Notes: generated by a model not told the origin, from the letters alone. 64,000 bases of DNA from Spirochaetia bacterium (GCA_965203905.1 CBDBDQ010000005.1:6656001-6720000), one strand, 5' to 3'. Positions 1,673 to 40,928 are shown, numbered from the stretch's first letter. Numbers and translations: made by a program.

Positions 1673-1999
1673 CTACAGCGACACACCGCGATCGGCGCCG
1701 AGACGGCCGCCACCGCCGCGCAGCCGCGGGTCGAGCAGGTCGCGCACCGCGTCGCCGAACATGTTCAGGCAGTACACGACAACCGTCAGGCACAGCCCCG
1801 GCCACAGCGCCAGCCGCGGCGCCACCTCCATGAACTCGCGCCCTTCCCGGCTCAGCATCCCGCCCCAGCTCGGCACCGAGATCGGCAGTCCGAACCCAAG
1901 AAAGCTCAGCGCAGCCTCGCGGTCTTGAATCTAGTCCCATCGGCGCCGCGAGGATACCCGGCCTCATCAAGCAACGCTTCGGCGCCTTCAGGGTCGTAG
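1673..1999 (-). pseudogene. Fused remnant: dppA internal piece (1921-1999) joined to dppC 3' end (1673-1920)
   Basis: DYDPEGAEALLDEAGYPRGADGTRFKT (cf. 5410-5490) followed by PSWGGMLSREGREFMEVAP..DLLDPRLRGGGG (cf. 13984-14230). Confidence 0.85.
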
Positions 2000-2212
2000 T
2001 CGGCGACGCAGCGAGTCTGAATGACCGGCAACGCCGGCGGTGAGTTGACGGGTGGCGCTACAGGGACCGTCCATGGCTCTACCGTGCGACTGTAGCACGG
2101 ACCCGTGAGTCGGGTCAGGTACGCCAGATCGCATGGATCGCATGGGGCTGCGGGCCGGTTCGTTGGAGAGAAAGGTTGTCCTGAAGACACTTTGAGGATA
2201 TACTTTTGGTGT

Positions 2213-2443
2213 ATGAAGACGATTACAGTCAAGGAACTGAAGGCCCATTGGGCCACCGTCGAGTCGGAGATCCGCTTGGGGGAGACGTTCGAGGTACTCA
2301 ACCGGGGCCGGGTTGCCGCCCACATCGTACCGCCGCGGCCGCGTCCCGTGGTCGCGTGGCCGGATCATCTGAGCACCGCTCTTCAGAACGACGACACCAA
2401 GGGGGCGGACATCGTCGCGTCGCACCGACACGAACGACGTTGA
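2213..2443 (+). CDS. Phd/YefM-family antitoxin
   Basis: MKTITVKELKAH..GETFEVLNRGRVAAHIVP; overlaps the PIN gene (TTGA). Confidence 0.85.
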   Translation: MKTITVKELKAHWATVESEIRLGETFEVLNRGRVAAHIVPPRPRPVVAWPDHLSTALQNDDTKGADIVASHRHERR

Positions 2444-2871
2444 TCTATCTCGACACCAGCGCGTTCATCAAGCTGTACCTGAAGGAAGAGGGGTCCGCTG
2501 CGGTGCATGAAGCGGTGGTCTCCCAGCAGGAGCCGCTGCCGGTGTGGAGTGTGCTCGAGTTGGAACTGTACAACGCGTTGCGGTTCAAGGTGTTCATCAA
2601 TGAGCTGACCGAGCAGGAGGTGGACGGTCTCCTGTCCACCTATCGCACACGCAAGCGCGCCGGCCAGTATCACGTGCCCCTTCTCGACCCGGTTGCACTG
2701 CACGAGCGTGCGATCGAGCTGACCTTGCGCACGCCGACCACTGGCTGCCGGTCGCTGGACATTCTTCATGTCGCTGCCGCCGACCTCCTGGCAGCGGAGC
2801 TGTTCGTGACCGGTGACCGACGCCAAGCCACGCTGGGGGAAGGCGAGGGCCTGCCGGTCAGGCTCGTCTGA
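2440..2871 (+). CDS. vapC: VapC PIN-domain toxin
   Basis: IYLDTSAFIKLY..E..RSLDILHVAAA..FVTGDRRQ. Confidence 0.9.
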   Translation: MIYLDTSAFIKLYLKEEGSAAVHEAVVSQQEPLPVWSVLELELYNALRFKVFINELTEQEVDGLLSTYRTRKRAGQYHVPLLDPVALHERAIELTLRTPTTGCRSLDILHVAAADLLAAELFVTGDRRQATLGEGEGLPVRLV

Positions 2872-2998
2872 CGCTTTGATCGCGTCAGGTTTAGTCGTGG
2901 TTTAGTCGTAACCGGTCTTGGGTGCCATCCCATCCTCCTTTGACGTGCGCGCACCCTCCGTACGGGTTGCCGATCCAGCGGAGTTGTAGACGCGGTTA

Positions 2999-3889
2999 CT
3001 AGCCGCCGGCGCCGAGCCGACCGCCGCCACCGCGGAGGCGCGGGTCGAGCAGGTCGCGCACGGCGTCGCCGAACATGTTCAGACTGTAGACCACGATCGT
3101 CAGGCACAGGCCGGGCCAGAGCGCCAGCCAGGGCGCCTGCTGCATGTACTCACGCCCTTCCCGGCTGAGCATGGCACCCCAGCTCGGCACGCCGACCGGC
3201 AGACCGAAGCCGAGAAAGCTCAGGGAAGCCTCACTGATGATCACCCCACCGACGTTGATGCTGAAGACGATGATGACGACCGGCATGATATTGGGCAGGA
3301 CATGGTGGATGAATGTCCGCCACTTTGAGGCGCCGATCACCTCCGCCGCCTGGAAGTACGCGTTCTCCTTGATGTCGATCACGGCGCCTCGCACCAATCT
3401 CGAACCGCCGATGCCTCCTGATATCCCCAGCACCAGGATGAGCTGTGGCACACCTCGCCCCACGATGGACATGATGGTCAACAACAGCAGCAGTCCCGGA
3501 ATAGCCATCCAGGCATCGACAAATCTCTGCACCACCAGGTCCAACTTGCCGCCAAAGAATCCTGACGTGCCGCCGATCAGGAGAGCAACCACGACATTGA
3601 GCGCGGTCGCTGCCAGACCGACGACCATCGACAGCCGCGCGCCGTAGATGACGCGGCTGAACAGGTCTCGCCCCAAGTGGTCGGTACCGAGCGGATACGC
3701 GGCTGATGAGCCGGTCAGCCGGTCCGCCAAGTGTATTTCAATGTATCCATACGGGGCCAGGACATCGGCCAGGATAGCCACCAGGATCACGAGCACGATG
3801 ATGATCCCGCTGATCGTGCCGAGTGACTTCTCCCGCCACATCCTGACGAAGAAAGAGGCCGTTCCCGGTACCGCGGTGGGGTCGCTCAT
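2999..3889 (-). CDS. DppC/OppC-like ABC permease (operon 1)
   Basis: LGTDHLGRDLFSR, HHVLPN, EASLSFLG, GDAVRDLLDPR; ATG overlaps the dppB stop. Confidence 0.93.
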   Translation of the reverse strand: MSDPTAVPGTASFFVRMWREKSLGTISGIIIVLVILVAILADVLAPYGYIEIHLADRLTGSSAAYPLGTDHLGRDLFSRVIYGARLSMVVGLAATALNVVVALLIGGTSGFFGGKLDLVVQRFVDAWMAIPGLLLLLTIMSIVGRGVPQLILVLGISGGIGGSRLVRGAVIDIKENAYFQAAEVIGASKWRTFIHHVLPNIMPVVIIVFSINVGGVIISEASLSFLGFGLPVGVPSWGAMLSREGREYMQQAPWLALWPGLCLTIVVYSLNMFGDAVRDLLDPRLRGGGGRLGAGG

Positions 3890-4842
3890 TGATAACGGAC
3901 CCGCGGATCCAGGTAGCCATAGAGCAGGTCGACCATGAGATTCACCCCGACCACCGCTGCGCCGAACACCAGGTTTACTCCGGAGACCATCGGGTAATCC
4001 CTGTCGGTGAGCGCGGCCAGCATGAGACGACCCAACCCCGGCAGGTTGAATATGTTCTCCATGATCACCGAACCGCCTACCAGGATCGGCAACTGCAGTC
4101 CAACCAGAGTGACTATCGGGATGAGGGCGTTCTTGATGGCGTGTCTGACAACGACCGCTCTCTCCCTGAGCCCCTTTGACCAGGCCGTGCGGATGTAGTC
4201 CTGCCGCAGCACCTCCAGCATCATGGTGCGCGTTATCCGCATGGTGGCTGCGGACAGGTAGGTGCCCAGAATCAGGCTGGGGATGATGAACACGCCGAGA
4301 CTTCCCAGCGGGTCTTCTGTGAACTGAATCACTTCCATCGGTGGTGCCCAGCCCCACCAGATCACCGGGTACAGCATGACCATCATTGCCAGCCAGAAGT
4401 TCGGCGTGGCCAGGCCGACGATGGCCACCGAGCGTCCCACGTAGTCGGCGGACGTATCCTGCCGAATCGCCGAGTAGATGCCGATTGGCAGGGCGATTAC
4501 CAGCCCGATGACGATCGACATGAGGCCGAGCTGAATCGTTACCGGCAATCGACTTACTATCGTCTCCTCTATCGTGTCCCGGTTGCCAACCAGTGAACGA
4601 CCGAGGCTGCCGCGCAGGAAAATATCGCCTAACCAGCGTACATACTGCACGTAGCCAGGCACGTCCAATCCCAGCATACGCTCGAGCGCCTCCCGGTCTA
4701 CCTCGGCTGAGAAGTCCACCGTGCCCAACATTGCGTCAATGGTATCGCCGGGGATGAAGCGGACCGAAAAGAAGACGATAAGGCTCAAAATGAGCAGGGT
4801 GGGGATAACGAGCAGCAACCGCCTGATGATATAGGCCCGCAT
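3886..4842 (-). CDS. DppB/OppB-like ABC permease (operon 1)
   Basis: YIIRRLL, QDYIRTAWSKGL..RHAIKNA, DPRVRY. Confidence 0.95.
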   Translation of the reverse strand: MRAYIIRRLLLVIPTLLILSLIVFFSVRFIPGDTIDAMLGTVDFSAEVDREALERMLGLDVPGYVQYVRWLGDIFLRGSLGRSLVGNRDTIEETIVSRLPVTIQLGLMSIVIGLVIALPIGIYSAIRQDTSADYVGRSVAIVGLATPNFWLAMMVMLYPVIWWGWAPPMEVIQFTEDPLGSLGVFIIPSLILGTYLSAATMRITRTMMLEVLRQDYIRTAWSKGLRERAVVVRHAIKNALIPIVTLVGLQLPILVGGSVIMENIFNLPGLGRLMLAALTDRDYPMVSGVNLVFGAAVVGVNLMVDLLYGYLDPRVRYQ

Positions 4843-4914
4843 GTCACATGAAATGAACGGCGAGCTGGAAAGAAAGAGCCTCCCAACTCGCCGATAACCG
4901 GGGGGATAAGACCC

Positions 4915-6693
4915 CTAGAATCCCATTTCTTCCTTCAACTGACTATCAATCCAAAGGCGCGAGATAACGAGGCTGTCCTCATTCGGTCCGAGATCGAATT
5001 CACCGCTGTAGCCTGTGACCCACGGCTGGAGTGCCCAAAACTGGGGAGCCTTGGGGCCCCATATTTGATAGTGGTGCTCGATCGCGTACATATCAACCTC
5101 TCTCACCCACTTCTGCTGCTCCTCGAAGGTAGTAGCGGCCAGAGCGGCGTCAACGAGAGCGTCCAACTCAGGCCACTGATGCAAGGGACGGTTCCACTGT
5201 GCGTCCGAGCGATGCCAGCCTACTAGAACTGGAGCGGCATAACTGGCGCCCCCAAGGCTTTGCATCATGCCTTCATAGCTACGCGCGAAGAGGTCCGCGT
5301 GATACAGGGCCCAGTCGCTGTAATCGTTGACCTCCACGTCGACGCCGATTTCGGCCCAGTAGGCGGCAGCGATCTCTGCATAGCTTGACCCACCGAGTGA
5401 CCTCGCGGACGTCTTGAATCGCGTGCCATCCGCGCCGCGCGGATATCCAGCCTCATCAAGGAGCTCCTCGGCACCTTCCGGGTCGTACGTATAGCCCTTC
5501 TTGACCTCTTCGGGCCACTCTTCGAATGGGATGTAAAACCCTTGAGCCCCTACTATCCCCTGAGGCGTCGCACTTGCGTAGCCCTTCCAGTACGTGTCCG
5601 CAATGGTCTCGAGGTCCAGGGCCATTTGCATCGCCTTGCGCACCCGGACGTCGTCAAAGGGCGGCACTCTTACGTTTGCAGCAAAGGTAGCCGTAGACCG
5701 AAAATAATGCGTATGTAGCACGATTTCGGGGTTGGTCTTCTGCAGGCTGTCTACGGCGTCGACAGATTTTAACCAACCACCTGAAGGGCCTCTGAGATCA
5801 ATCGTCCCTGAGATGAGTGCCGCCTGGAGTGTTGCTTCCTCCGGAATAATCAAATAACGTACCTCGTCAACGTAAGGCAGGCGGTTCTCGGGGTACTTTT
5901 CGTCATAGCCCCAGTAATCAGGGTTTCTGGTCCGGGTAGAAGAGCTGCCGTCCACCCAGTCAGTCATCTCAAAGGGCCCGGTGCCGACCAGGTTCCTCCA
6001 ATCCGTGATACCACCGTGTTCCTTGATTACCTCTGGCGGCAATATGTAAACCATCAGATCCTGGGTGATGACCTGAAACGCGGGCAGGTAAGGCCGCTTC
6101 AACTTCATGACAACCGTCGAATCGTCGGACGCAGTCACCGATTCGAATGGCACGCCAAGGAGGTTGGAAGCGCCCCCAAAGGGGGATGGTCCGACGTCGG
6201 CGAAGTCGCCCAGACCTACCATACGGTGAAAGTTGAATTCGACATCCTGCGCCGTCAGCAGACGGCCGTTCATCGGGGCCTTATCGTGCCAGCGAACGCC
6301 GTCGCGGATGTGGAAGATAAAGGTGGTATCGTCAGGCGTTTCCCAGCTTTCGGCCAGCCGCCCCGTTACCACGAACGGCGGGTAGGTGTTCGCCGCTTTC
6401 AAGTCCCACACATCTCTGTCTATTCCCCAGTTGGCGATAGCCAGCTTCTCCAAGACGCCCATGATCGGTGGGTCTGGCCAGCCGGAATAGGGGTCCCAAC
6501 TATTGAGCATGCCCTTGTAACCGACGGTCAGCGTCCCGCCATACTCCGGCGCCACTACCATCTCACCGGTGGTGGGATCGGTCACATACTGCTTGTCGGC
6601 GGCGGCGGCCGGCGCCTCCTCCTCGCCGCTGGCAAACGTAACGGTAGCCACCAGCGCGAGCGCCAGTGCCAATACAAGTGATCGAAGAGCCAT
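4915..6693 (-). CDS. DppA/OppA-like (family 5) solute-binding protein (operon 1)
   Basis: GAGGAG SD then MALRSLVLA signal peptide; LAESWE, GTGPF, DVRVRKAM, YDPEGA. Confidence 0.93.
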   Translation of the reverse strand: MALRSLVLALALALVATVTFASGEEEAPAAAADKQYVTDPTTGEMVVAPEYGGTLTVGYKGMLNSWDPYSGWPDPPIMGVLEKLAIANWGIDRDVWDLKAANTYPPFVVTGRLAESWETPDDTTFIFHIRDGVRWHDKAPMNGRLLTAQDVEFNFHRMVGLGDFADVGPSPFGGASNLLGVPFESVTASDDSTVVMKLKRPYLPAFQVITQDLMVYILPPEVIKEHGGITDWRNLVGTGPFEMTDWVDGSSSTRTRNPDYWGYDEKYPENRLPYVDEVRYLIIPEEATLQAALISGTIDLRGPSGGWLKSVDAVDSLQKTNPEIVLHTHYFRSTATFAANVRVPPFDDVRVRKAMQMALDLETIADTYWKGYASATPQGIVGAQGFYIPFEEWPEEVKKGYTYDPEGAEELLDEAGYPRGADGTRFKTSARSLGGSSYAEIAAAYWAEIGVDVEVNDYSDWALYHADLFARSYEGMMQSLGGASYAAPVLVGWHRSDAQWNRPLHQWPELDALVDAALAATTFEEQQKWVREVDMYAIEHHYQIWGPKAPQFWALQPWVTGYSGEFDLGPNEDSLVISRLWIDSQLKEEMGF

Positions 6694-6706
6694 AATCGTG
6701 CTCCTC

Positions 6707-6767
6707 TTTTTTGCGGAGCGCGAGTCTGCGCCCCGTTTTTTTTGCCGGATACTCCGGCTTTTTTTTT
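6707..6767. promoter_or_regulatory. Two hairpins separated by T6/T8/T9 tracts (A-tracts on the dppA mRNA) directly upstream of the SD
   Basis: cggagcgcgagtctgcgccccg-T8-gccggatactccggc-T9. Confidence 0.55.
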
Positions 6768-7179
6768 CGTGTAGTGTTGCTGTTGGCCGGCCCTGCGATC
6801 CTGCCGCTCGGAACGGAAAGCAGCGAGCAGGCTGCGGTGCTCGAGCGCTGCGCAGGGGCACGGGCGGGCTACCCGCCGCAACCCGCGAGCAGCGTGGTGT
6901 GCTGGGAGTGGAGTTCTGCTGGTCGCCCGGCTGATAGCCGCGACGGGGTGAAAGACTGACGAATTGCGAGTGCCCGGCTGGCGGAGCGGTTAGTGAGCCG
7001 GTCTACTAGGTTGTGTTCATATTCCCCGGGGGGGGGTAGGCGAGGATAGGACGCGCCGGTTGCGTTGCCGCTAGGAGCGTGTCGGCTGCGCCGACGAGGT
7101 CCGAGCGTACCGGTGGGATGGGCCACCCGCTTCGCGGCCCTTCGGGGCGGCGCCTCGGGCGTCGGTTTTGGGGCGCTAG

Positions 7180-10251: not shown

Positions 10252-11105
10252 TACAGCGCATTGCCGACATTCGCGGGCAGCGGAATCTGGAGCGCGTGAC
10301 CGGTCTTTGACTGGGTAACGGTGATGGTGTCGTTGATCCAGTCTATGTCGGCGAGTCGAAGGCTCAGGATATCTACGGATCGCAATCCGGTTCGCAACGC
10401 CAACAGGATGATGGCCTTGTCTCGAAATTAGAGGGACTCGCCGTGCAGCAGCGTTTCCAGGGTAGCGGTCTCCTGCTCGGAAAGGATCGGTATGATCGGC
10501 TTGTTTCTTACACACCGCGAGGGAACTGCTGATAGCAGACGGTCGGCTTTGCAGAAGCGCAGAAACGAGCGTATGTTCGAGGCAACAGTACGGATACTCG
10601 TGGGGCGATATGTGGCGAGCAGATGCTGGAAGAAAGCAGGTACCAGAGCGACACTGGCGAGCGCCAGCGTAGTGCAGCCGTGGTCTTCTAGAAACAACAG
10701 TAACTGACGGACTGAGTTGGTGCATGACTGAATCGTATTGGCACTCTTGTTAGTGACTTTAAGGTAATCCATGAAGTTCTCATGCAGCAGCAGAAGCTCT
10801 CTCGACTTAGGCATCGGATGGCGCTCGCATGTATAGATGGCCCATCTGATTGCTCCGTTGGCGACATATTCTCGCAGTATCAATGATGCCCGTCTGAAAT
10901 GAGCGTGTCGGCCCCGTCCGACTGTTCCTGCCTTGTGCTGGTTCACCTTATCCTGCAGGAAACTTCGGATCAGGCCGTCACAATAGCGTTCGACGTTCCG
11001 TGCTGTTGCATACTCCTTGAGCCGCTTATATGTTTGTCGATAGTGATTGATCGTTGCCGTGTCAAGACCGAACTTTCCGATCTCCTGAAGAACCGTTCTC
11101 GACAA
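10252..11105 (-). pseudogene. Tyrosine recombinase (RIT-like) pseudogene
   Basis: N-terminal SAM-like part, in-frame TAA at 10428-10430, then RDKAIILLALRTGLRSVDI..DIDW..QSKTG..PLP; truncated before HxxR/Y. Confidence 0.8.
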
Positions 11106-11208
11106 GATCGTCCCACAACAGGTTGGTGTGCATTGAGCACCTCCTTGAATGATCTCCAGATCAGTGTCTGGCTCCTCATCTTGGACGGTGCGCTTGCAAG
11201 TCGCAATG

Positions 11209-11318
11209 TTATGCCGAAGTTTGGAACGCTAACTGCTTGTGCACAAGCAAGTTACCCTCAAAGTTCGGCATTTCATTTCTTTCGGGATAATCCGAAAAAT
11301 GCCGAAATTCGGCATTTT
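11209..11318. repeat. Palindromic putative recombinase-binding end with (T/A)ATGCCG motifs
   Basis: atgccgaagttt..gcttgtgcacaagc..aaagttcggcat (11211-11271) and aaaatgccgaaattcggcatttt (11296-11318). Confidence 0.65.
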
Positions 11319-11320
11319 GG

Positions 11321-11800
11321 CGACAACGGCGGCGAATTCATCAATCTTCATCTGGCGCGCTACTGCGAGGATCACGGCATCACCTTCACTCGGGGGCGCC
11401 CGTATCGCAAGAACGACACCTGCTTCGTCGAGCAGAAAAACGGCCACGTGGTGCGGCGCGCGGTGGCTACCTGCGCTACGACAGCGACGCGCAACTGGCT
11501 GCCCTCAACGCGGTGTATCGCCCCCTCTGCCTGCTGAAGAACTTCTTCTACCCTTCGGTGAAGCTGGTGAAGAAAGTTCGCTCCGGCAGCAAGGTGCGCC
11601 GCATCTATGATGACCCGCAGACCCCGTATCACCGCGTGCTGGACCCAGTCGGTGAGCGACGAGGTGAAGGCCTGCCTCAAGCAGCAGTACGCGACGTTGA
11701 ATCCGGTCGCCCTCAAGCGCGAGCTGACCCGATTGACCGAGCACCTGTTGCGGCTACCTGGGTCCAAGAGCGCGCCTCCAACACGGCCGAGCAACCGCTG
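11321..11800 (+). pseudogene. rve/DDE integrase-core transposase remnant
   Basis: DNGGEFIN..GITFTRGRPYRKND.CFVEQKNG.VVR; frameshifted; NFFYPSVKL..YDDPQTPYHRVL. Confidence 0.8.
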
Positions 11801-13983: not shown

Positions 13984-14860
13984 CTACACCGGCGCAGCGC
14001 GATCGGCGCCGAGACGGCCGCCACCGCCCCGCAGCCGCGGGTCGAGCAGGTCGCGCACCGCGTCGCCGAACATGTTCAGGCAGTACACGACAACCGTCAG
14101 GCACAGCCCCGGCCACAGCGCCAGCCGCGGCGCCACCTCCATGAACTCGCGCCCTTCCCGGCTCAGCATCCCGCCCCAGCTCGGCACCGAGATCGGCAGT
14201 CCGAATCCAAGAAAGCTCAGCGCAGCCTCGCTGATGATCACGCCACCCACGTTGATGGTGAAAATGATGATCACCGGAGCCGCGATGTTGGGCAGGACGT
14301 GGTGGATGAGGGTTCTCCAGCGGGTGCCGCCGATCGCCTCGGCCGCCTGAAAGTAGGCGTTCTCCTTGACCCCGATCACCGCGCCGCGGACCACTCGCGA
14401 ACCGCCGATGCCGCCCGTCACCCCCAGCACCACGATGATCTGCGGCAACCCCCGCCCCACCAGCGACATGATGGTGAGCAACAGCAGCAGCCCCGGAAAC
14501 GCCATCCAGGCGTCGACGAAGCGCTGCATCGCCAGGTCGAGTCGACCGCCGAAGAACCCCGAGACGCCGCCGATCAGCACCGCCACCACGACGTTGACGG
14601 TGGTCGCCGCCAGACCGACGGTCAGCGATATCCGGGCCCCGAACACGAGGCGGCTCAGCAGGTCTCGTCCCAGTTGGTCGGTCCCCAACAGGTACCGGTT
14701 GGACGGGGCCTGCATCCGGTCCACGATGTTGACTTCATCATGCGGGTAAAGGCGCCAGCACATCGGCAAAGATCGCCACCAGGATCAACAGCAGGATGAC
14801 GACCCCGGCGATGATGCTCAGTGGCTTCTCCTTGACCAGCCTGCGAAAGAACTCAGTCAT
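13984..14860 (-). CDS. DppC-like permease (operon 2), +1 frameshift near 14748 (real or sequencing error)
   Basis: MTEFFRRLVKEKP start; gggtaaaggcg here versus gggtaaggcg in the paralog at 23811. Confidence 0.85.
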
Positions 14861-15815
14861 AGCGAACCCTGGGGTCCAGGACCGCGTAGATCAGGTCGAT
14901 GAGCAGATTGATCACCACGACCCCAGTGGCGAAGAACAGGTTGATGCCGGAGACCATCGGGTAGTCCCGGTCATCGAGCGCATTCAGCAACAGGCGCCCG
15001 AGCCCCGGCAGGTTGAAGATGTTCTCCATGATCACGGCGCCCCCGACCAGGATCGGCAACTGCAGGCCGATCAGGGACACCACCGGGATGAGAGCATTCT
15101 TGACGGCGTGTCGGATCACCACCGCCCGCTCCTTGAGCCCCTTGGACCAGGCGGTGCGGATATAGTCCTGCCGGAGCACCTCCAGCATCATGGTACGGGT
15201 CATCCGCATGGTCGCGGCCGCGGCGGCGGTGCCCAGAATCAGGCTGGGAACGATGAACACCGCCAGATTGCCCAGCGGGTCTTCGGTGAAGGCAACCAGC
15301 TCCAGCGGCGGCGCCCAGCCCCACCAGATGGCCGGGTAGATCATGACCATGATGCCCAGCCAGAAGTTGGGCGTGGCCAAGCCGATGATGGCGACCGAGC
15401 GCCCCAGGAAGTCGGTGGCCGAATCCTGGCGAACCGCCGAGTAGATGCCGATCGGGAGGGCTATCACCAGACCGATCATGATCGCCAGGAGGCCAAGCTC
15501 GATGGTCACCGGCAGTCTGGTTATGATCTGCTCCCCCACCGCCCCACGGCCCATCAGCGATTCGCCAAGGCTGCCACGCAGGAGAATCCCTCCCAACCAA
15601 CGGCCGTACTGCACCCACACCGGCACGTCCAGTCCCAGCCTGCGCTCCAGCGCTTCCCGGTCGACCGACCCAACGGCCACCGTGTATCCCAGCCTCGCTT
15701 GGATTGCGTCGATTACGTCGCCGGGGATGAAGCGGACCGAGAGAAACACCAGGACCGTCACGACGAACAGGGTAGGGATGATCAGCAACAACCGCCGAAC
15801 GAGATAGGCTGTCAC
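14853..15815 (-). CDS. DppB-like permease (operon 2)
   Basis: YLVRRLL, QDYIRTAWSKGL, DPRVRYD. Confidence 0.95.
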   Translation of the reverse strand: MTAYLVRRLLLIIPTLFVVTVLVFLSVRFIPGDVIDAIQARLGYTVAVGSVDREALERRLGLDVPVWVQYGRWLGGILLRGSLGESLMGRGAVGEQIITRLPVTIELGLLAIMIGLVIALPIGIYSAVRQDSATDFLGRSVAIIGLATPNFWLGIMVMIYPAIWWGWAPPLELVAFTEDPLGNLAVFIVPSLILGTAAAAATMRMTRTMMLEVLRQDYIRTAWSKGLKERAVVIRHAVKNALIPVVSLIGLQLPILVGGAVIMENIFNLPGLGRLLLNALDDRDYPMVSGINLFFATGVVVINLLIDLIYAVLDPRVRYD

Positions 15816-15904
15816 GGTGGCACCTTGCTCATCGATGAGTAAGGGAGCCGAAAGGCCCGAGCCTCCCAGCCCCCGTTCTCACTTGAGTCGGTGTGGGTTA
15901 CGCC

Positions 15905-25776: not shown

Positions 25777-25965
25777 TTAATCCAGGCCTAGATCCTTCTT
25801 AATCTTGGCAACAAGGCCCTTCCCCAGATCCTTATCTGAGCCGTGCACAGGAAACTGAGATACGAGACCATCGCGTCGAACGGTCACATGCCCTCCTCCA
25901 CCCTTGTGGGCTTCGAAGGTGCACCCTCTTTTCTTCAACCATCGTCGTAGTTCGGAACCTTTCAC
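25777..25965 (-). CDS. hicA: HicA toxin
   Basis: ELRRWLKKRGC..GGGH..PVHG.KDLGKGLV.KIKKDLGL. Confidence 0.9.
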   Translation of the reverse strand: MKGSELRRWLKKRGCTFEAHKGGGGHVTVRRDGLVSQFPVHGSDKDLGKGLVAKIKKDLGLD

Positions 25966-32364: not shown

Positions 32365-33306
32365 TCACTGCGCCGGCCTGGCGCGCCGCGTGGTTCCGAA
32401 ACGTCCCGCGCCGCCGCGCAGGCGCGGATCCAGCAGATCGCGCAGCGCGTCGCCGAACATGTTGGCGCCGTACACGACGAGGGCCAGGCACAGACCCGGC
32501 CAGAACGCCAGCCACGGCGCCTGCAGCATGTACTGGCGGCCCTCGATGCTGAGCATGCCGCCCCAGCTCGGCTGCGGCGGCGGGATGCCATAGCCGAGAA
32601 AGCTCAGCGTCGCCTCGGCGATGATGTTGCCGCCCAGGGACACCGTGAACAGCACGATCATCGGCGCGATCAGTTCCGGCGCGATGTGACGCCACAGGAT
32701 CCTGAAGGTGGCCGCGCCGACCGCTCGCGCAGACTGCACGTACATCGCTTCCCTCACGCTCAGCACCACGCTGCGCACGGTACGGGTATTGCCGATCCCG
32801 GACGAGATGCCCAGCACCAGGATCACCTGCAGCAGGCCGGGACCGAGAATCGACATCACCGTCAGCACGATGAACAACCAGGGGAACGTCAGCCAGGCAT
32901 CGACGAAGCGTTGCACGATGAGATCGAACGCCCCGCCCCAATAGCCGCACAGCAGTCCAAGCGCCATCGCCACGACGATCGTGAGCGCGCTGGAGGCGAT
33001 GCCCACTACCATCGACACCCGTGCGCCATGGATAACGCGGCTCAACTGGTCTCTGCCGAACTGGTCGGTTCCCAGCGGCCACTCGGCCGACGGCGGCAGC
33101 AACCGGCGCGAGAGCTCCTGGTCGCGCAGGCCGTAGGGCGCGAGCAGGTCGGCGAAGATGCCCACGAGCAGGAACAGAAGCACGAGGATGCCACTGATCG
33201 CGCCGATGCACTTCTCGCGGGCAAATCGGCGCAGCAACTCCCAGATTCGGTGCTGTCTCGTGGCCGCGCCTGTCCCGACCCCCGTTATTTCCTCCGGCTG
33301 ACTCAC
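32365..33306 (-). CDS. DppC-like permease (operon 4)
   Basis: LGTDQFGRD, EATLSFLG, GDALRDLLDPR. Confidence 0.93.
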   Translation of the reverse strand: MSQPEEITGVGTGAATRQHRIWELLRRFAREKCIGAISGILVLLFLLVGIFADLLAPYGLRDQELSRRLLPPSAEWPLGTDQFGRDQLSRVIHGARVSMVVGIASSALTIVVAMALGLLCGYWGGAFDLIVQRFVDAWLTFPWLFIVLTVMSILGPGLLQVILVLGISSGIGNTRTVRSVVLSVREAMYVQSARAVGAATFRILWRHIAPELIAPMIVLFTVSLGGNIIAEATLSFLGYGIPPPQPSWGGMLSIEGRQYMLQAPWLAFWPGLCLALVVYGANMFGDALRDLLDPRLRGGAGRFGTTRRARPAQ

Positions 33307-34262
33307 TAGTCGTACCGAATGCGGGGGTCGAGGAAGCTGTAGGTCAGGTCGATCAGCAGGTTGACGATCAGCACGAAGCCGGCCACTACCAGGTTGATGC
33401 CGGACACCACGATGTAGTCGCGCCGTTCGATGGCGAACACCAAGAGGCTCCCCAGGCCGGGAAGCTGGAACAGCGTCTCCACGATCACGGCGCCGCCGAC
33501 CATAACCGGCAGCATGAGACCGACCATGGTGACCACCGGCAGCATCGCGTTGCGCAACACGTGACGGACCACCACCACCGGTTCCTGCAGCCCCTTGGAC
33601 CACGCGGTACGGACGTAGTCCTGGCGCAGCACCTCCAGCATCATGGTGCGCGTCAACCGCATCGTCACGCCGGACAGCCACATGCCGAGGATGCTCGCGG
33701 GGATGATCAGCGACGTGAGGTTGCGGATCGGGTTCATCGAGAACCGGGTGTAGATCATCGGCGGCGCCCAGCCCCACCAGAGCGCGGGATACACCCACAC
33801 CATGAGCGCGATCCAGAACCCGGGCACGGTGATCAGCAGGATCGCGAAGCTGCGTAGCAGGTAGTCCCCGACGGTGTCGGGCCGTATGCCGGAGTAGATG
33901 CCGACCGGCAGCGCAATGGCCAGCGATATGAGGATCGCCAGCGCGCCAACCTCGAGGGAGACCGGGAGACGGTTCAGGACCAGGTTGGTGACGGACTCAC
34001 GGCTTACCAGCGCGTCGCCGAGGTCGCCGCGCAGCACGTCCGTCACCCACGTCACGTATTGCGCCACCAGGGGCCGATCCAGCCCGAGCTTGGCCCGGAT
34101 CAGCTCCCTCGGATCCTCTACGCCGGCGCCGCGCGCCATCCCCATCACCATCATGTCCACCACGTCGCCCGGAATCAGCCGAACCGAGAAGAACACGATG
34201 ACGGTTACGATGAAGACCGTCGGCACGATGAGCAGCAGCCGGCGGATGATGTAGGTCTGCAT
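33306..34262 (-). CDS. DppB-like permease (operon 4)
   Basis: YIIRRLL, QDYVRTAWSKGL, DPRIRYD. Confidence 0.95.
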   Translation of the reverse strand: MQTYIIRRLLLIVPTVFIVTVIVFFSVRLIPGDVVDMMVMGMARGAGVEDPRELIRAKLGLDRPLVAQYVTWVTDVLRGDLGDALVSRESVTNLVLNRLPVSLEVGALAILISLAIALPVGIYSGIRPDTVGDYLLRSFAILLITVPGFWIALMVWVYPALWWGWAPPMIYTRFSMNPIRNLTSLIIPASILGMWLSGVTMRLTRTMMLEVLRQDYVRTAWSKGLQEPVVVVRHVLRNAMLPVVTMVGLMLPVMVGGAVIVETLFQLPGLGSLLVFAIERRDYIVVSGINLVVAGFVLIVNLLIDLTYSFLDPRIRYD

Positions 34263-34350
34263 CAATGCAGAACGGGGGCGCGTGTGCGGTGCCGCTCGCG
34301 CGACACCACACTAAAGCGCCGCCCCCGCGCTAGGCTAGTCGTGGGCCGGG

Positions 34351-36186
34351 TTACTCGTTTGGTCCGCGCCCGGACATCTGCTGCTTCATGTCGGTATCGA
34401 CCCAGTAGAACCGGGACAAGGCCAGCCAGCGGTCGACCGCGACGCCCTTCTCGCCGTTGTAGCCCTTGATCCACGGCTGCCAGAACAGGAAGGTCGGCTC
34501 GGCAACCACCGGGATGGTGTCGGAGCGTTCCAGCGCGTACACGAAATACTCGTTGTAGCGCGCGATCCCCTCGGCCGGCGGCAGGCCGGCAATCTCGGCG
34601 CGGAACTGGTCGTACACCGGCGTGGCGGCGCGCGAGTAGTTCCACGAGCTGTTGATGTCGTAGTAGTGGACCAGCGTCGAGAACGCGCTCGGGCCGTTAC
34701 CCCAGTCGTTGGCGACCATCTCCTGATGCTCGCCGTTCACCATGATGGTGGAGTAGACCCCCGACTCCTGCACGTTGATGTTGGCGATCAGGCCGATGTC
34801 GTCCCAGTAGCCGGAGTACAGCTCGGTGAAGTGCTGGAACTCCGGCGGCGTGATCACCTCGAATTCGAAGCCGTCGGGATAGCCGGCGTCCGCCAGCAGC
34901 TTGCGCGCCTTGTCGAGATCGCGACCGATCAATGACTGGGCGCTCGTTCCCGACCCCTCGTGCGCGAGCAGCGGTTCGGTGGGCAGGTCCTCCAGCGGGA
35001 CGAAGAAGGCTCCCGTGGTCGGATACGCCGGCCACGCGTAGGTGAGCCCGTTGCCGGCGTAGAACTGGTCGTTCACCTCCTGGTGCGGAATGGCGAGCAT
35101 GAACGCCTGCCGCACCCGCATGTCGGCGAACTTGCTGCCCGGCAGGTCCTGGCGCATGTGGAATATCGCCTGGCGCCACTGGCCCACGCGGGAGTTGAGC
35201 TCGGGGTTGGTCTCGGCGAGCGACTCTTGCCAGCGCTCCGGGAGGAACGCGAACAAACTGCCGTTGCGGTCGATCTGACCGGTACGCATGCCCGCGCCGA
35301 CCGCCTCGATCTCGGCGAACGGAATCATGCGGAACCCGTCGAGGTACGGTTGCTGATTCTCGGGAAACAGCGGGTCCGTGCCCCAGTAGTTGGGGTTCTT
35401 GACGTACTCGGCGACGCTGCCGTCGACGTAGTTGGACCAGATGAAGGGCCCGGTGCCGAGCGCGTTGCGCCAGTCGACCATGTCCACGCCCTCGGCTTCC
35501 ACCGGACGCAGGGTCATATTGCCCAACAGCCGAAAGTTCTCCCAGGTATAGTCCGCCCCGTGGCCGGCCCAGTCGACGTCCACGGTCCAGTCGTCGCGCG
35601 CGGTCCAGGTGAAGTTGGGCCAGGCGCCCGAGGCCGGGTTCTCCTTCTGCGAGTTGGCCGAGTACACCACGTCGTGGGCGTTCGCCTCCCGCCCGTACGC
35701 CGACTCCAGCTCGGGCACGGGGTTCACGACGTTCTCCTTGTCCCAGAAGTGAATGCCGCGCCGGATTTGGAATACGACGTGGGTGGGGCCGGTCTGCTCG
35801 AAGCTCTCGGCTGCGTCGCCGATCCACCAGACCTGCGGTACGTCGCCCGGCGTGCTGAACTCGCCGGTGCCCGAGACTCCGCGCGCCCAGTCGACCACTA
35901 CGAGTCGATCGTAGGGCGGTTGCGATGGCCAGGCCAGGTGGCTCGGACCGGTCGGGTCGGTGGTAGTGCCACCCAGGACGGCCTCCGTCGCCCAGCCGCC
36001 GTAGCGCGGCTTCTCCACCTCTATGCTCATGGTGGTGCCGTCGGTGCGCGTAAGCTCCACGGTCACCATCTCGACCTCGGCCGCCATCGTCTCGCTGGCC
36101 GGTGACGCCCACAGGGTGGCCGCCGCCAGCGCGAAGGCCAGCGCGAGCGCCAAGGCTCCTAATTTATTAGGGAATGAAAATCTCAC
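34351..36186 (-). CDS. DppA-like solute-binding protein (operon 4)
   Basis: Signal peptide, PRYGG, GTGPF, KNPNYW, DMRVRQA, AGYPDGF. Confidence 0.92.
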   Translation of the reverse strand: MRFSFPNKLGALALALAFALAAATLWASPASETMAAEVEMVTVELTRTDGTTMSIEVEKPRYGGWATEAVLGGTTTDPTGPSHLAWPSQPPYDRLVVVDWARGVSGTGEFSTPGDVPQVWWIGDAAESFEQTGPTHVVFQIRRGIHFWDKENVVNPVPELESAYGREANAHDVVYSANSQKENPASGAWPNFTWTARDDWTVDVDWAGHGADYTWENFRLLGNMTLRPVEAEGVDMVDWRNALGTGPFIWSNYVDGSVAEYVKNPNYWGTDPLFPENQQPYLDGFRMIPFAEIEAVGAGMRTGQIDRNGSLFAFLPERWQESLAETNPELNSRVGQWRQAIFHMRQDLPGSKFADMRVRQAFMLAIPHQEVNDQFYAGNGLTYAWPAYPTTGAFFVPLEDLPTEPLLAHEGSGTSAQSLIGRDLDKARKLLADAGYPDGFEFEVITPPEFQHFTELYSGYWDDIGLIANINVQESGVYSTIMVNGEHQEMVANDWGNGPSAFSTLVHYYDINSSWNYSRAATPVYDQFRAEIAGLPPAEGIARYNEYFVYALERSDTIPVVAEPTFLFWQPWIKGYNGEKGVAVDRWLALSRFYWVDTDMKQQMSGRGPNE

Positions 36187-37259: not shown

Positions 37260-37538
37260 CTACGATCCATAGTGGTATCGTGCCGCGATGAATCGCACGC
37301 TCGCTGTTTCGACTCGATAGACCAGACGGTGTTCCTGGTCGATACGCCGGGACCAGGCGCCGGCGAGCTGTCCTCGGAGCGGTTCCGGTTTACCCGGTCC
37401 GCCGAAGGGATCCCGGAGCACAGCCTCGATCAGTGATAGGATGCGTAGCGCGCGCCGCCGGTCGGTGCGGACCCAGTGCTCCAGGTCGTGCAGACAGTTC
37501 CGGTCGAAGAGCGCATTCCGGCGGCGGCCTTCCTTCAC
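37260..37538 (-). CDS. yoeB: Txe/YoeB toxin
   Basis: DPFGGPGKPEPLRG.L.GAWSRRIDQEHRLVY..ARYHY. Confidence 0.92.
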   Translation of the reverse strand: MKEGRRRNALFDRNCLHDLEHWVRTDRRRALRILSLIEAVLRDPFGGPGKPEPLRGQLAGAWSRRIDQEHRLVYRVETASVRFIAARYHYGS

Positions 37539-37819
37539 GTGCCATCGAGGCCGAGTCGTTCGCGGAGTTGTTCGATGCTCAGCGGCATGCCTTCCCCTGC
37601 GGCGGCGCGGCGGTTGCCGTCCAACAGGCGCTGCGCATTCCTGGGAGAGCGAAGCAGGTAAGCCGTCTCCATCCACCCCGCGAGATCATCGGCTGCGACC
37701 ATCGCGACCGGTGCCGCTCCGCGCCGGCGAATGAGGATCGGCTCGCGGGTGTCCGTTACCTGGTCCATGAGCGCCGCCAAGTGGGCACGCGCGTTGCTGT
37801 AGGTGGTTTCGTAGATCAT
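37535..37819 (-). CDS. yefM: YefM antitoxin
   Basis: TYSNARAHLAALMDQV..ETAYLLRSPRNAQRL. Confidence 0.92.
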   Translation of the reverse strand: MIYETTYSNARAHLAALMDQVTDTREPILIRRRGAAPVAMVAADDLAGWMETAYLLRSPRNAQRLLDGNRRAAAGEGMPLSIEQLRERLGLDGT

Positions 37820-37832
37820 CGCGATTTCTTCC

Positions 37833-37851
37833 TGTACAGCAAAACGGTACA
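37833..37851. promoter_or_regulatory. Putative YefM operator (TGTACA/GGTACA pair)
   Basis: tgtaca 37833-37838 and ggtaca 37846-37851 upstream of yefM; TGTACA is the known E. coli yefM operator core. Confidence 0.6.
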
Positions 37852-37907
37852 AGTAACCGGCCTGTTCGTCAACGACTACCATTGATCCCGTTCGAGGAGG
37901 CATCGAA

Positions 37908-38237
37908 ATGACCCGACTCGATCCGGTTCACCCTGGCGAAGTCCTCAAGCATGACTTTATGGAGCCTCTTGGCTTGTCGGCCACCATGCTTGCGAAGGCG
38001 CTCGGCGTGACGCCGGCGCGAATCAACGAGATCGTGCGCGGACGCCGCGGCATCACGGCCGAGACCGCGCTGCGCCTGGCGCGTTATTTCAACACCGATG
38101 CCCGGAGCTGGATGAACCTTCACGACCGCTACGAGCTCGAAATTGCGGCGCGGGACAAGGCCGAAGCGCTGCGCGCCATCCGTCCGCACGAAGTGGCCGC
38201 GCGCGGGAGCCGGGCGCCTGCTACGCGCCAGGTTTGA
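37908..38237 (+). CDS. higA: Orphan HigA antitoxin (only a ..DYH* tail of higB remains at about 37870-37885)
   Basis: PVHPGEVLKHDFMEPLGLS..ITAETALRLARYF..WMNL. Confidence 0.9.
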   Translation: MTRLDPVHPGEVLKHDFMEPLGLSATMLAKALGVTPARINEIVRGRRGITAETALRLARYFNTDARSWMNLHDRYELEIAARDKAEALRAIRPHEVAARGSRAPATRQV

Positions 38238-38336
38238 GGTAGCCGGTCAGCTCATGGGCTCTTGTGTGCCGGCTCGGCGTCGCCGCGGTTGTCGGTCAGC
38301 AGTGGCTGAATCAGCGCCAGCTCGTCCGCCGGCAGC
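38231..38336 (-). pseudogene. Displaced 3' end of the PhyH gene
   Basis: Diverged copy of 51791-51896. Confidence 0.85.
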
Positions 38337-38376
38337 AACTAAAACTAAACCCTCGCCCCTTGTGCTGAACCATGGG

Positions 38377-38736
38377 CTAAACGAGAAGGTCGAGATCCAC
38401 GTCCAATGCTTTTGCAATCGCCGCCAGGGTGGCGACAGATCCGTTACGGTTCCCGCGCTCGATCTGCGAAAGATAGAGCGAGCTGACGCCGACAGTCTGC
38501 GCGAGCTGCTTCTGCGTCATCCCACGGTACTCTCGAAACACCCGAATCGGGTTTTCTCCATCGACTATCTGGTCAGCCACTTCGCTCGGGAACATCTCCT
38601 GAGCCTTTGCACGATCACAGAGAGCTGCATCTTCGGCGTCCTCATCGATTGCGGCGAGGCGCTCATAGTCGCTCCACGGAATCACCGCAAACGTTGGGCG
38701 GCCGGTTTCGTCGACGATCACCTGCGGTTCGTTCAT
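38377..38736 (-). CDS. XRE-family HTH antitoxin-like protein
   Basis: GRPTFAVIPW.DYE..GENPIRVFREYRGMTQKQLA..YLSQIERG. Confidence 0.88.
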   Translation of the reverse strand: MNEPQVIVDETGRPTFAVIPWSDYERLAAIDEDAEDAALCDRAKAQEMFPSEVADQIVDGENPIRVFREYRGMTQKQLAQTVGVSSLYLSQIERGNRNGSVATLAAIAKALDVDLDLLV

Positions 38737-39010
38737 GTCATCCTCCTACTTCCGATGGCCAGCACATCGATCAAGCGGGCAGGGTCGTCCCGTATGAGAA
38801 GCACGCGACGGTTACCAACCCTCAGGCGGGGGTCGAGCAGACATCAGCGTTGGGCGGCCGGTTTCGTCGACGATCACCTGCGGTTCGTTCATGTCATCCT
38901 CCTACTTCCGATGGCCAGCACATCGATCAAGCGGGCAGGGTCGTCCCGTATGAGAAGCACGCGACGGTTACCAACCCTCAGGCGGGGGTCGAGCAGACAT
39001 CAGCGTTGGG
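38692..39010. repeat. Exact 156-bp tandem duplication containing a RelE 3' remnant and an 18-bp dppC piece
   Basis: Units start at 38692 and 38848; bounded by cgttggg. Confidence 0.92.
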
Positions 39011-39365
39011 TGTCCGGTATCGCACGCATCCGAATGCGACGTTCGCTGATGACCGAGAAGTGTCCCTCCCACTCCACGTGCGACGCAAGGCTGTCGGCCA
39101 CAAATTGTGGCAGGGTGTCTTTCGACATGCCGGCGAGACGGAATAGCACAATGCCATGAGCCGCCGGCATACGCGCCCGGAACGCCAAGTCTCCGAAATC
39201 CTTGTCGAAGGTCACCAGGAGACGGGACTCTTCCGTAGCGCGGCTCAGTATGTTGGTGTCTGCAGTACCCGGTTCCCCTTCGGACACCCATGCCACGTCG
39301 TGTCCTGCGCTACGCAGCATCTCTACCGCGGCACCCGGCACATTTTCATCGGCGAGTATCCTCAT
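39000..39365 (-). CDS. DUF5615 PIN-like toxin
   Basis: MRILADENVP..GHDV..LVTFDKDFG. Confidence 0.88.
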   Translation of the reverse strand: MRILADENVPGAAVEMLRSAGHDVAWVSEGEPGTADTNILSRATEESRLLVTFDKDFGDLAFRARMPAAHGIVLFRLAGMSKDTLPQFVADSLASHVEWEGHFSVISERRIRMRAIPDTQR

Positions 39366-39377
39366 GCCCACTGAGGG

Positions 39378-39611
39378 TTATGCGATTCCGACTGGAAACA
39401 CCTTCTCCGAACGCAACACATCGCCGGCGTACTGGAGGCAGGCCCTGATGTCATCGGTGCTGAGGCGCGGGTAGTTCGCAAGGATATCGGCTTCGCTCCA
39501 TCCCTGTGCCAGCAGGTCGATGATGAACTCCACGGCGAGCCGGGTTCCCCGTACCACCGGCTTGCCCGTCAGCACAGCCTCGTCAGCGACGATCCGTTCT
39601 TGCCAATTCAT
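39378..39611 (-). CDS. DUF433 antitoxin
   Basis: GKPVVRGTRLAVEFIIDLLAQG..YPRLS.DDIRACL.YA. Confidence 0.92.
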   Translation of the reverse strand: MNWQERIVADEAVLTGKPVVRGTRLAVEFIIDLLAQGWSEADILANYPRLSTDDIRACLQYAGDVLRSEKVFPVGIA

Positions 39612-39737
39612 GTTCCGGTCCTCCCCGCTCTCCTTCAGAACTGCCTCGTGCCGGGACAAAATACCGCGAGTCTGTCGGTGTCACAACAGCCGCCGAAAGG
39701 CGGAGCGGGCTCGATGATTGGCTCCCCAGGGGAGTCG

Positions 39738-39829
39738 TCACTTGCGGGCCGCGGACGGGTGCCTCGGCGCCGAAGCGGCCGATGCCGCCGCGCGGGTGGG
39801 GGTCGAGCAGGTCGCGCAGCGCGTCGCCG
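39738..39829 (-). pseudogene. dppC 3'-end remnant (most similar to operon 6 dppC)
   Basis: GDALRDLLDPHPRGGIGRFGA. Confidence 0.85.
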
Positions 39830-39831
39830 GG

Positions 39832-39960
39832 TACTGATATACGATGCAACGCGATGATCCGCTTGTTGACAGGGCTGGGGTTCTCCGTACGGGACGGCAG
39901 GAAGCAGGCGCACAAAGTTGTCACCCACCCCGGGCTCGCGGCGTTCACGTCCGCGCCATC
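39832..39960 (+). pseudogene. Possible HicA-like toxin fragment
   Basis: LLTGLGFSVRDGRKQAHKVVTHPGL. Confidence 0.5.
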
Positions 39961-40004
39961 ACTAGTGAACACGAAGTGGCGTGAGACGTCTGCCGCGGCC
40001 GCGG

Positions 40005-40928
40005 TTACTTGCGGCCGGCGGGCGGGGCCTCTGCTGCCTGCTTCACGTTGGCTGCGCCGATGCGGCCGGCGCCGCCGGTCAGCCTGGGGTCGAGCAGGTC
40101 GCGCAGCGCGTCGCCGAACATGTTGATGCCGTACACCACGATGGCGAGGGACAGGCCGGGCCAGATCGCCAGCAACGGCGCCCGCTCCATGTACCGGCGG
40201 CCCTCGAGGCTCAGCATCCCGCCCCAGCTCGGCTGTGGTGGCGGAATGCCGAAGCCGAGGAAGCTGATGGTCGACTCGCTCAGAATCACCGCACCCAGGG
40301 AGATGGTGAAGACCACGATGATGGGCGGCCACACCTGCGGCAGGACGTGGTTGAGGAGGATCCTCCAGGTGGGGCAGCCGACGGCCCGCGCCGCCTCCAC
40401 GTACGGGTTCTGCTTGGTGCTCAACACCACGCCCCGTACGGTCCGGACGTTGCCGATGCCCGTGAACGCGCCGAGGACGACGATCATGGGCACCATGCCC
40501 TGTCCCAGGAGCGACATCACGGTCAGCACGATGAACAGCCACGGGAAGGTGAGCCAGGCATCGACGAATCGTTGGACGACCAGGTCGAACGTACCACCCC
40601 AGTAACCGGACAACAGACCGAAGAACAGGGCGATGACCAGGCCGATGGCGACGGCTCCCACTCCCACGATCATGGAGACGCGCGCCCCGTGAATGACGCG
40701 AGTCAGCAGGTCGCGGCCAAACTGGTCGGTGCCCAGCGGAAACTCGGCCGATGGTCCTTCGAGCGCGCGCCTGAGATTTTGGTCTCTGAGGTCGTGGGTG
40801 GCGAGCAGGTCGGCAAACACGCCCACCAGGAAGAACACCAGTACGATGATCAAACCGACGGCGCCGAGCTTCTTTTCCCGGAACAGCCGCGGCAGCAGGT
40901 CGCGAAGCGACCCCTTTCTGGCGCTCAC
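40005..40928 (-). CDS. DppC-like permease (operon 5)
   Basis: LGTDQFGRD, YVEAARAVG, GDALRDLLDPR. Confidence 0.93.
   Translation of the reverse strand: MSARKGSLRDLLPRLFREKKLGAVGLIIVLVFFLVGVFADLLATHDLRDQNLRRALEGPSAEFPLGTDQFGRDLLTRVIHGARVSMIVGVGAVAIGLVIALFFGLLSGYWGGTFDLVVQRFVDAWLTFPWLFIVLTVMSLLGQGMVPMIVVLGAFTGIGNVRTVRGVVLSTKQNPYVEAARAVGCPTWRILLNHVLPQVWPPIIVVFTISLGAVILSESTISFLGFGIPPPQPSWGGMLSLEGRRYMERAPLLAIWPGLSLAIVVYGINMFGDALRDLLDPRLTGGAGRIGAANVKQAAEAPPAGRK

Follow-up and report, generated by a model that had tools for sequence, protein, structure and literature searches.

Stranded 3′ ends of dppC genes in a spirochaete genome: probable scars of one-sided DNA capture and transporter-unit erosion, with no support for a dedicated cassette system

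The window analysed here (G000:C5:6656001-6720000; 64,000 nucleotides of G000, an 8.0-Mb genome in five contigs) carries six resident dppC permease genes, each the last gene of a dppABC transporter unit, and several detached dppC 3′ ends, hereafter called tails, which lie near toxin–antitoxin (TA) and ATPase genes. A preliminary description of this DNA had taken the tails to be reusable landing pads in an integron-like array. A dedicated cassette system is not supported by our analysis. The best reading is that two general processes operate in a highly plastic genome: the tails probably reflect capture of DNA through one homologous end combined with end-joining, together with erosion of redundant transporter units. 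Roughly a quarter to a third of the dppC tails would be of the capture-like kind, the remainder being relics or ambiguous. The source appears to be a sponge-associated spirochaete, as judged from run labels and record titles: runs containing window positions 30400-40300 are labelled as metagenomes of sponge, coral or marine origin or bear coded host names, and the dppC pattern was found in 11 genome records, nine of which are titled Spirochaetia or Spirochaetaceae. A clade-specific pattern, searched for in two collections, gave no match.

One dppABC subfamily is represented in G000 by 64 intact dppC, 64 dppB and 62 dppA genes, besides 108 distant (canonical) dppC genes. A DNA profile search of the G000 chromosome identified 23 tails, five heads and 11 internal pieces of dppC. 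From 5′ to 3′, the numbers of remnant pieces in successive tenths of the gene were 6, 9, 11, 9, 8, 8, 7, 17, 18 and 26, compared with 1-6 per tenth for dppB and 1-7 for dppA, and remnant breakpoints were four times as frequent in dppC as in dppB (52 versus 13 pieces). The proposed 3′ enrichment of dppC remnants is thus borne out, the last tenth alone accounting for 26 pieces. When dppC fragments of 70 nt were held out, 51-54 of 64 3′ pieces were recovered versus 21-26 of 64 5′ pieces, and at 150 nt recovery was nearly equal; detection bias, amounting to twofold at most, was rejected as too small to be the source of the gradient inside dppC. The codon pattern for DLLDPRL, which marks the dppC end, occurs in 47-158 copies per genome in all five relatives examined and was absent from the reversed control.

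Enrichment of TA and ATPase genes near tails also proved to be above chance genome-wide. A PIN, Phd, ParE, HicB or PDDEXK_9 match lies within 2.5 kb of 13 of the 23 tails, versus a local background of 23% (p=0.0005; outside the window 9/18, p=0.011). By the same measure, such matches accompany 15/67 intact subfamily ends (Fisher p=0.004), 16/51 other dpp remnants, 8/108 canonical dppC ends and 10% of random positions. The TA and AAA-nuclease load of G000 is very large, with 74 PIN, 41 Phd, 19 HicB-like, 14 ParE and 44 PDDEXK_9 matches in the whole genome.

The habit is not specific to dppC: many other genes also have a stranded 3′ copy. Among 6382 gene calls made in G000 with a codon model built here, 41 local gene-end repeats place a 3′ end downstream of its gene (7 dppC, 34 other), and the other three possible configurations number 11, 14 and 15. 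For single-copy genes, the corresponding counts are 24 versus 9, 9 and 7 (p=0.014 against 5′ copies upstream). Differences between the single-copy 3′ repeats fall 67/71/190 on the three codon positions, and this third-position excess points to spare copies that diverged as working alleles and hence to a foreign donor. At one single-copy gene, the site is filled in G000 and empty in G001, G007, G009 and G010, where 36-93 nt separate the gene from the next conserved piece. The per-gene frequency is about 15-fold higher for dppC (6/68 versus 32/5103 for other genes), a ratio inflated by tandem paralogs. Two non-dpp tails lie in the window itself (49338-49479 and 38224-38339). At the first of these (49338-51732), the last 141 nt of a short-chain dehydrogenase gene are recopied, in decayed form, 1.4 kb downstream, so that gene and copy flank an AAA_14/DUF4143 gene; in those relatives that were compared, similarity to the dehydrogenase ends at or a few bases from its stop codon.

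In 2.58 Mb from five related genomes, 104 further tails were identified, giving a total of 127, which divide into 38 tails fused to further dpp pieces and 89 orphans. An orphan tail lies downstream of an intact dppC on the same strand in 33/89 cases, and on the opposite strand in 7 of the 55 cases in which an intact dppC lies within 6 kb. Overall, 34 of 262 intact subfamily dppC genes (5/68 in G000) have their own 3′ end repeated within 6 kb downstream, whereas this is true of 0/224 dppA 5′ ends, 4/259 dppB 3′ ends and 1/108 canonical dppC genes. In 32 of these 34 bracketed intervals, examined with one repeat each (two in the window were set aside), TA or ATPase genes are present in 11 and nuclease-like genes in six more, the others holding enzymes. 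Variable cargo behind orthologous dppC genes, as had been expected, was indeed observed: behind dppC5, G001 and G004 have an aldolase gene, G006 has a DUF433 module and G000 has another 10 kb of DNA.

Breakpoints were placed against parents of at least 92% identity and expressed relative to the DPR codons. At the 44 junctions for which both parents are known, the overlap ranges from -5 to +7 nt: 20 junctions share 1-2 nt, 13 contain small inserts, one is blunt and 10 share at least 3 nt (10/44, where 6% is expected by chance; 34/44 share less). These junctions look end-joined, judging by their form. Ku is encoded in 10 of the 11 genomes of the genus and LigD in G000. A ComEC domain was found in 11/11 genomes of the genus, but also in 10/14 controls. 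Loss of mismatch repair was rejected, as mutS scores over the cut-off in 9/11 genomes, including G000.

These data can be accommodated as follows. Incoming DNA, derived from a related strain or from a paralogous locus, would recombine in through homology with a gene, bringing a complete gene end and whatever follows it (TA module, ATPase, nuclease, enzyme or dppABC unit). The far end would be sealed without homology, most likely by Ku/LigD end-joining, and where this seal lies within the old gene, the 3′ end of that gene would be stranded downstream. The survivors would be events in which promoter and reading frame are preserved, leaving 3′ tails and not 5′ heads. By the same end-joining, redundant tandem dppABC units would be deleted piecemeal, and such erosion would leave tails joined either to unrelated DNA or to pieces of dppA, dppB or dppC. 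The roughly 15-fold stronger targeting of dppC would be due to its dozens of similar copies and to its place as the last gene of the unit.

The individual tails of the window bear on both processes. The features concerned, with those around them, are as follows.

53..1348, plus strand: AAA-ATPase_like/PDDEXK_9 gene, 3′ part, convergent on tail t1
1607..1672, minus strand: flank common to dppC genes of the C2/C3 clade
1673..1920, minus strand: tail t1, final 248 nt of a C2/C3-clade dppC and relic of a whole dppABC unit; 94.9% identical to an intact unit in the G004 C6:810000 region
1921..2001, minus strand: internal dppA piece fused to t1; 91% identical to dppA of the matching intact G004 unit
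2000..2047, minus strand: conserved leader motif, usually placed upstream of dppA
2213..2871, plus strand: phd-vapC module (Phd match weak, E 0.015; PIN E 1.6e-7)
2999..6861, minus strand: intact unit dppA1-B1-C1; the G005 orthologue has different DNA past the stop codon
7176-9043: insertion sequence (DUF772 and DDE_Tnp_1), 95% identical to a copy at G000:C5 6296225-6298094
10255..11329, minus strand: tyrosine-recombinase gene broken by two stops, not an integron integrase; 69% identical to a three-integrase cluster elsewhere in G000
13984..17629, minus strand: unit dppA2-B2-C2 with a short C2 frame; the orthologue is only a tail in G007
19173..19202, minus strand: tail t2, a repeat of the C3 end that comprises the flank and final 29 nt of a C2/C3-clade dppC
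19260..20388, strand unassigned: cargo between dppC and t2, Fic-like gene pieces and a ParE-like half gene
20386..20632, plus strand: tail t3, inverted, from a clade without an intact copy in the window
20703..21195, minus strand: higA-like helix-turn-helix gene and higB piece, carried with t3
21488..21723, plus strand: t3b, a collapsed unit in which two dppB pieces are fused to a dppC end at the common LDPR codons
22245..23018, strand unassigned: second copy of the ParE/Fic-like cargo, partly inverted
23051..24316, minus strand: dppC3, intact, preceded by a dppB reduced to its 3′ part
24327..25040, minus strand: AAA ATPase relic
25133..25254 (25178-25254 by alignment to intact genes), minus strand: tail t4, with a decayed motif
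25293..25965, minus strand: hicA-hicB module
30327-32324: vanadium haloperoxidase-like gene (DUF6851, VCPO, PAP2), with fragments at 18829-19087 and 27705-27933
32365..36186, minus strand: intact unit dppA4-B4-C4
36793..36901, minus strand: tail t5 (C2/C3 clade) plus flank
37260..37903, minus strand: yefM-yoeB module
38224..38339, minus strand: stranded 3′-end copy of a PhyH gene (gene at 51775-52707)
38692..39022, minus strand: 156-bp tandem duplication containing an 18-nt dppC snippet (38823-38840, 38979-38996)
39000..39659, minus strand: DUF433/DUF5615 module, found behind dppC5 in G006 and behind dppC6 in G007
39738..39829, minus strand: tail t7, 92% identical to dppC6
39830..39959, plus strand: hicA-like piece (family assigned by eye), matched at 86% by DNA of G004
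40005..43819, minus strand: intact unit dppA5-B5-C5, between dppC6 and t7
43922..47924, minus strand: intact unit dppA6-B6-C6
49338..49479, minus strand: stranded 3′-end copy of the short-chain dehydrogenase gene (50896-51732), bracketing the AAA_14/DUF4143 ATPase gene at 49520-50758
54033-55847: DUF222/HNH gene belonging to a multicopy family; relatives contain many copies of a related piece located at 12420-13570

All six resident dppC genes are present as described earlier; dppC3 stands without a dppA and behind a 5′-truncated dppB, and the open frame of dppC2 is short (266 codons from stop to stop versus 289 for dppC3). Five of the tails listed in the preliminary description are clear, whereas that near 19190 comprises only 29 nt and those at 38823 and 38979 are one snippet counted twice; the tail at 21488-21723, on the plus strand, was missing from that list. 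The statement that nearly all tails keep the DLLDPRLR codons did not hold, the motif being intact in only three of the eight (1673, 20386 and 36790), and decayed to DLLDLRLR in t4 and DLLDPHPR in t7. Derivation from different paralogs holds in that four sources can be distinguished, although three tails come from one clade. All eight tails measured do lie within 0-555 nt of a TA or ATPase gene, but this closeness says little inside the window because 53% (within 500 nt) and 60% (within 1000 nt) of the non-dpp positions in window 1-40200 are equally close.

A filled and empty pair, of the kind that the preliminary description had proposed to look for in relatives, is present at the t2 locus. 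In G007, this locus has the order dppC, 1.5-kb Fic-like cargo, gene-end repeat, flank and ATPase, whereas the orthologous units of G004 and G006 have dppC, flank and ATPase without cargo or repeat; dppA-B of the G007 unit is 91-92% identical to those two units. The gene-end repeat comprises 44 identical nt in locus L029. Tail t2 itself consists of the final 29 nt and flank, without DPRLR, and its cargo in G000 has been broken by an inverted block (t3, higBA and t3b) from another clade. The label Fic-like rests on a score of 0.93; the whole frame is present in G007, and a Pfam/NCBIfam search of it gave no match. Tail t7 may be the old dppC6 end, displaced by unit 5, but no locus joining a dppC6-type gene to the t7 flank was found.

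The first example offered earlier, dppC1 followed by phd-vapC and a tail, turned out otherwise: t1 (96-97% identical to the C2/C3 clade) is a deletion relic of another dppABC unit. A leader motif, a piece of dppA and the dppC end, all from a single unit, follow one another there, and in G004 this unit is still complete and precedes the same flank and ATPase gene. Likewise, a G007 tail (model position 655) is the remnant of the unit kept as dppA2-B2-C2 in G000. Both are deletions. A common breakpoint of the two (-188/-189) was considered and rejected, as the partners differ and the coincidence is within chance for about 100 breakpoints. Tail t5 is shortened in three of the four runs compared and absent from metagenome locus L021; that locus was rejected as an empty site, since in the alignment dppC6 keeps its own end and t5 is merely absent. 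The 18-nt dppC snippet, which includes no gene end and runs into a RelE-like half gene (family by eye), is probably real but one event; its 18-mer class occurs at only four chromosomal places outside mapped dpp pieces. The 156-bp duplication around it is single in one contig of run X1, and among the contig pieces listed, none spans the whole stretch.

Two further claims of the preliminary description concerned the arrangement of genes and tails. Bracketing by dppC is not the rule, as only 23/89 orphan tails have, within 6 kb, an intact dppC as the nearest dpp feature on their upstream side (the same clade in 9/23). Nor, outside same-clade pairs, are the tails generally the displaced end of the upstream gene. 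Displacement was scored in 20 of these 23 pairs, 19 of which have a close parent; in 2/19 pairs, the tail resembles the lineage of the upstream gene more closely than the present end of that gene does, and in 15/19 the reverse is true. This result weighs against the capture component of the reading favoured above, and it agrees with a test at the dppB level. Several other observations count on the same side. Other dpp pieces are held by 19 of the 32 bracketed intervals, and a filled and empty pair could arise by deletion in a tandem array. Only four single-copy genes were compared for empty sites; the comparison was clean in one and uninformative in the other three. The regions of the relatives were picked around the DLLDPRL motif, so that their counts are biased towards tails, and dppA fragments are under-detected (5-35 of 62 recovered at 70 nt). 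Special conservation of the dppC 3′ third was rejected, this third being no better conserved than dppB (0.69-0.71 versus 0.65-0.78 for the last four tenths). In addition, a 41-nt leader motif, present upstream of 62/238 dppA genes, is orphaned in G000 about as often as dppC ends (5/23 and 23/91, respectively), which weakens the 3′ asymmetry at the level of the unit.

It is conceivable, though we regard it as unlikely, that all dppC tails are deletion relics, produced by end-joined losses of units that halted at selected TA neighbours, with no capture through dppC; the remnant at the 5′ side of a unit would then be its non-coding leader and that at the 3′ side a dppC end. The relics t1, t3b and the G007 tail, the 38 of 127 tails fused to dpp pieces, the 15/19 pairs without displacement, the orphaned leaders (5/23) and the trimming of t5 are all consistent with this explanation, and deletion triads were flagged eight times, two of them self-matches. 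It leaves unexplained the 24 single-copy genes with downstream 3′ copies and their third-position excess, the empty sites of one such gene in four relatives and the excess of dppC over dppB breakpoints. Moreover, TA systems are reported not to conserve their neighbourhoods (PMC13617665).

A more ambitious version of the capture reading, which we consider rather improbable, would treat the approximately 50-150 dppC ends per genome as a distributed, recombinase-free capture array, with homologous entry, a Ku/LigD seal and tails that serve again for entry or exit; TA modules and complete new dppABC units would be added in succession, and the transporter repertoire of these sponge symbionts would expand and turn over by sequential displacement.

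Improbable to a further degree are reusable landing pads in the strict sense, where RecA would excise a circle of cargo and tail between dppC and tail, which would re-enter at other paralogs and produce integron-like shuffling. The direct end repeats around cargo at 34/262 dppC genes, several of them 95-99% identical, and the abundance of the motif (47-158 copies) are compatible with such a cycle, as is the phd gene of the module at 2213..2871: this antitoxin part has a 98% identical counterpart in G005, which is flanked by two dppC tails and adjoins a different dppC unit from that in G000. Re-integration would copy cargo–tail junctions to new loci, but only 5/89 junctions recur at another locus; four of these belong to one G005 block held twice and one to a shared ancestral locus. 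Cassettes moving as units are not supported, and reuse of the tails as landing pads was not observed. The G005 block (G005:C1 1-16600 and G005:C4 near 1723000-1740000; 99-99.9% identical) is probably an assembly duplicate. In a contig comparison of four runs from four studies (window 1-21000 left out; joints between dpp paralogs with sides shorter than 30 nt disregarded), no excision or circle joint was found among the 15 of 71 joints that were listed, with the reservation that contigs drop rare variants. The upstream dppC genes are mosaic in 1/19 cases versus 18% of 195 controls.

Very unlikely, in our view, is a homing-like spread in which nucleases of the cargo (PD-(D/E)XK types: PDDEXK_9, YhgA/Rpn-like, Uma2 and Hjc-like) cut cargo-free dppC ends. 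End-joined junctions imply breaks, and nuclease-like genes occur in six intervals beyond the 11/32 with TA or ATPase genes, but there is no common cut site, the cargo is of many kinds and a PDDEXK_9 gene lies within 1.5 kb of only 2/67 intact dppC ends.

A site-specific element or integron-type recombinase acting at the DLLDPRLR codons, with tails as attachment (att)-like sites, is nearly excluded. A gene-end repeat around an insert together with empty relatives, as with att-type elements, was found at t2 and at one single-copy gene; in length, the 44-nt repeat at t2 matches an att core, and G000 contains 28 tyrosine-recombinase matches. The breakpoints, however, are not clustered as had been predicted: the 97 placed are spread from -685 to -9 (about 680 nt), denser towards the end, with at most eight in any 3 nt. 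Pairs within 2 nt show a mild excess (90 versus 63 expected, p=0.003), attributable in part to shared ancestral deletions and a detection edge. None of 35 TIGR02249 matches in G000 exceeds the cut-off for an integron integrase, no integrase was found among 60 frames of the 32 bracketed intervals, and no motif common to the sequences upstream of 98 listed junctions was seen by eye. Orientation is mixed, with t3 and t3b inverted relative to every resident dpp gene and cargo on both strands. In keeping with the earlier remark that no intact integrase exists locally, the local recombinase gene contains two stops. It is related to the three-integrase cluster at G000:C5 2711398-2714704, and its region (10255-11959) also includes a palindrome of 73 nt (11205-11277) and a stretch of 640 nt that matches G000:C5 878697-879336 at 95% identity. 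Deletions made by insertion sequences were also rejected, the junctions having no common sequence.

An assembly artefact from collapsed repeats has a negligible probability: the contamination estimate of G000 (7.9%), the G005 block present twice at 99.9% and the 156-bp duplication found single in X1 speak for it, but the tails show decay and are unlike any of the intact genes, contigs bridge t3b in 4/4 runs from four studies, t2 recurs in G007 and the pattern is present in five other genomes.

Three observations concern the units themselves. In one clade (window 13984-17629 and 23051-23920; G000:C5 2244211, 6630772 and 6638972), dppC genes 91-98% alike stand behind dppA genes only 50-80% alike as proteins, and binding proteins appear to have been swapped or diversified before a constant permease. 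A dppB/dppC junction is repeated in tandem about nine times with a period of about 82 nt at L029:3472-4201, and likewise in L183 near 9800-10560. Locus L033, titled Aggregatilineales, contains dppABC units scoring like the subfamily and a dppC end with flank 86% like t4; inter-phylum exchange or a binning error is possible.

Integrons and att-site elements carry TA-rich cargo arrays and in some cases repeat a gene end around the cargo. The loci described here differ from them in having no integron integrase, no fixed crossover, mixed orientation and unique junctions. Homology-facilitated illegitimate recombination relies on GC-rich microhomologies of 3-10 nt, and the overlaps observed here, mostly 1-2 nt or replaced by small inserts, are shorter. 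As that process is outlined in PMC5361080, one-sided homology is common to both, and a putative competence gene is present here. In Sinorhizobium meliloti, non-homologous end-joining captures foreign DNA with small untemplated inserts (PMC6379672); the junction form is alike and ku and ligD are present here, but in that work a break was engineered and both ends were joined, whereas we infer a hybrid of one homologous and one end-joined side.

The closest parallel is the C-terminal displacement with orphan 3′ modules described for Rhs, contact-dependent inhibition (CDI) and Vibrio cholerae type VI secretion system (T6SS) effector loci, where, in PMC5361080, a homologous anchor and an illegitimate far junction are proposed, older 3′ ends are displaced downstream into arrays without an integrase and the authors themselves draw the integron comparison. 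In those systems, what varies is the toxin tip encoded by the gene itself, together with the immunity gene. At the loci described here, a conserved gene end is accompanied by unrelated cargo, and dozens of transporter paralogs and many single-copy genes serve as targets; moreover, the former end of the upstream gene was recognized in only 2/19 tails, with 15/19 against. By analogy, the dppC loci most likely work like these displacement systems without being members of those families or an integron. TA islets without mobility genes, in small variable spots of high turnover, resemble our loci in eroding and in spreading by recombination at flanking genes (PMC13617665); stranded ends of the flanking genes are not described in the passages of that report consulted here. 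Among open full texts, without supplements, no literature on dppC or ABC-permease tails was found by title or start of abstract. What is new here is the scale, the multicopy target and the junction statistics.

The tails represent no new integron-like machine, and if deletion alone were responsible, they would amount to ordinary decay in plastic islands. If capture is true, more than 100 junctions from six genomes constitute a natural data set on the entry of TA and other cargo without mobility genes, and they suggest that homologous recombination works together with Ku/LigD end-joining. Such capture would also explain the very large substrate-binding-protein transporter arrays of sponge symbionts.

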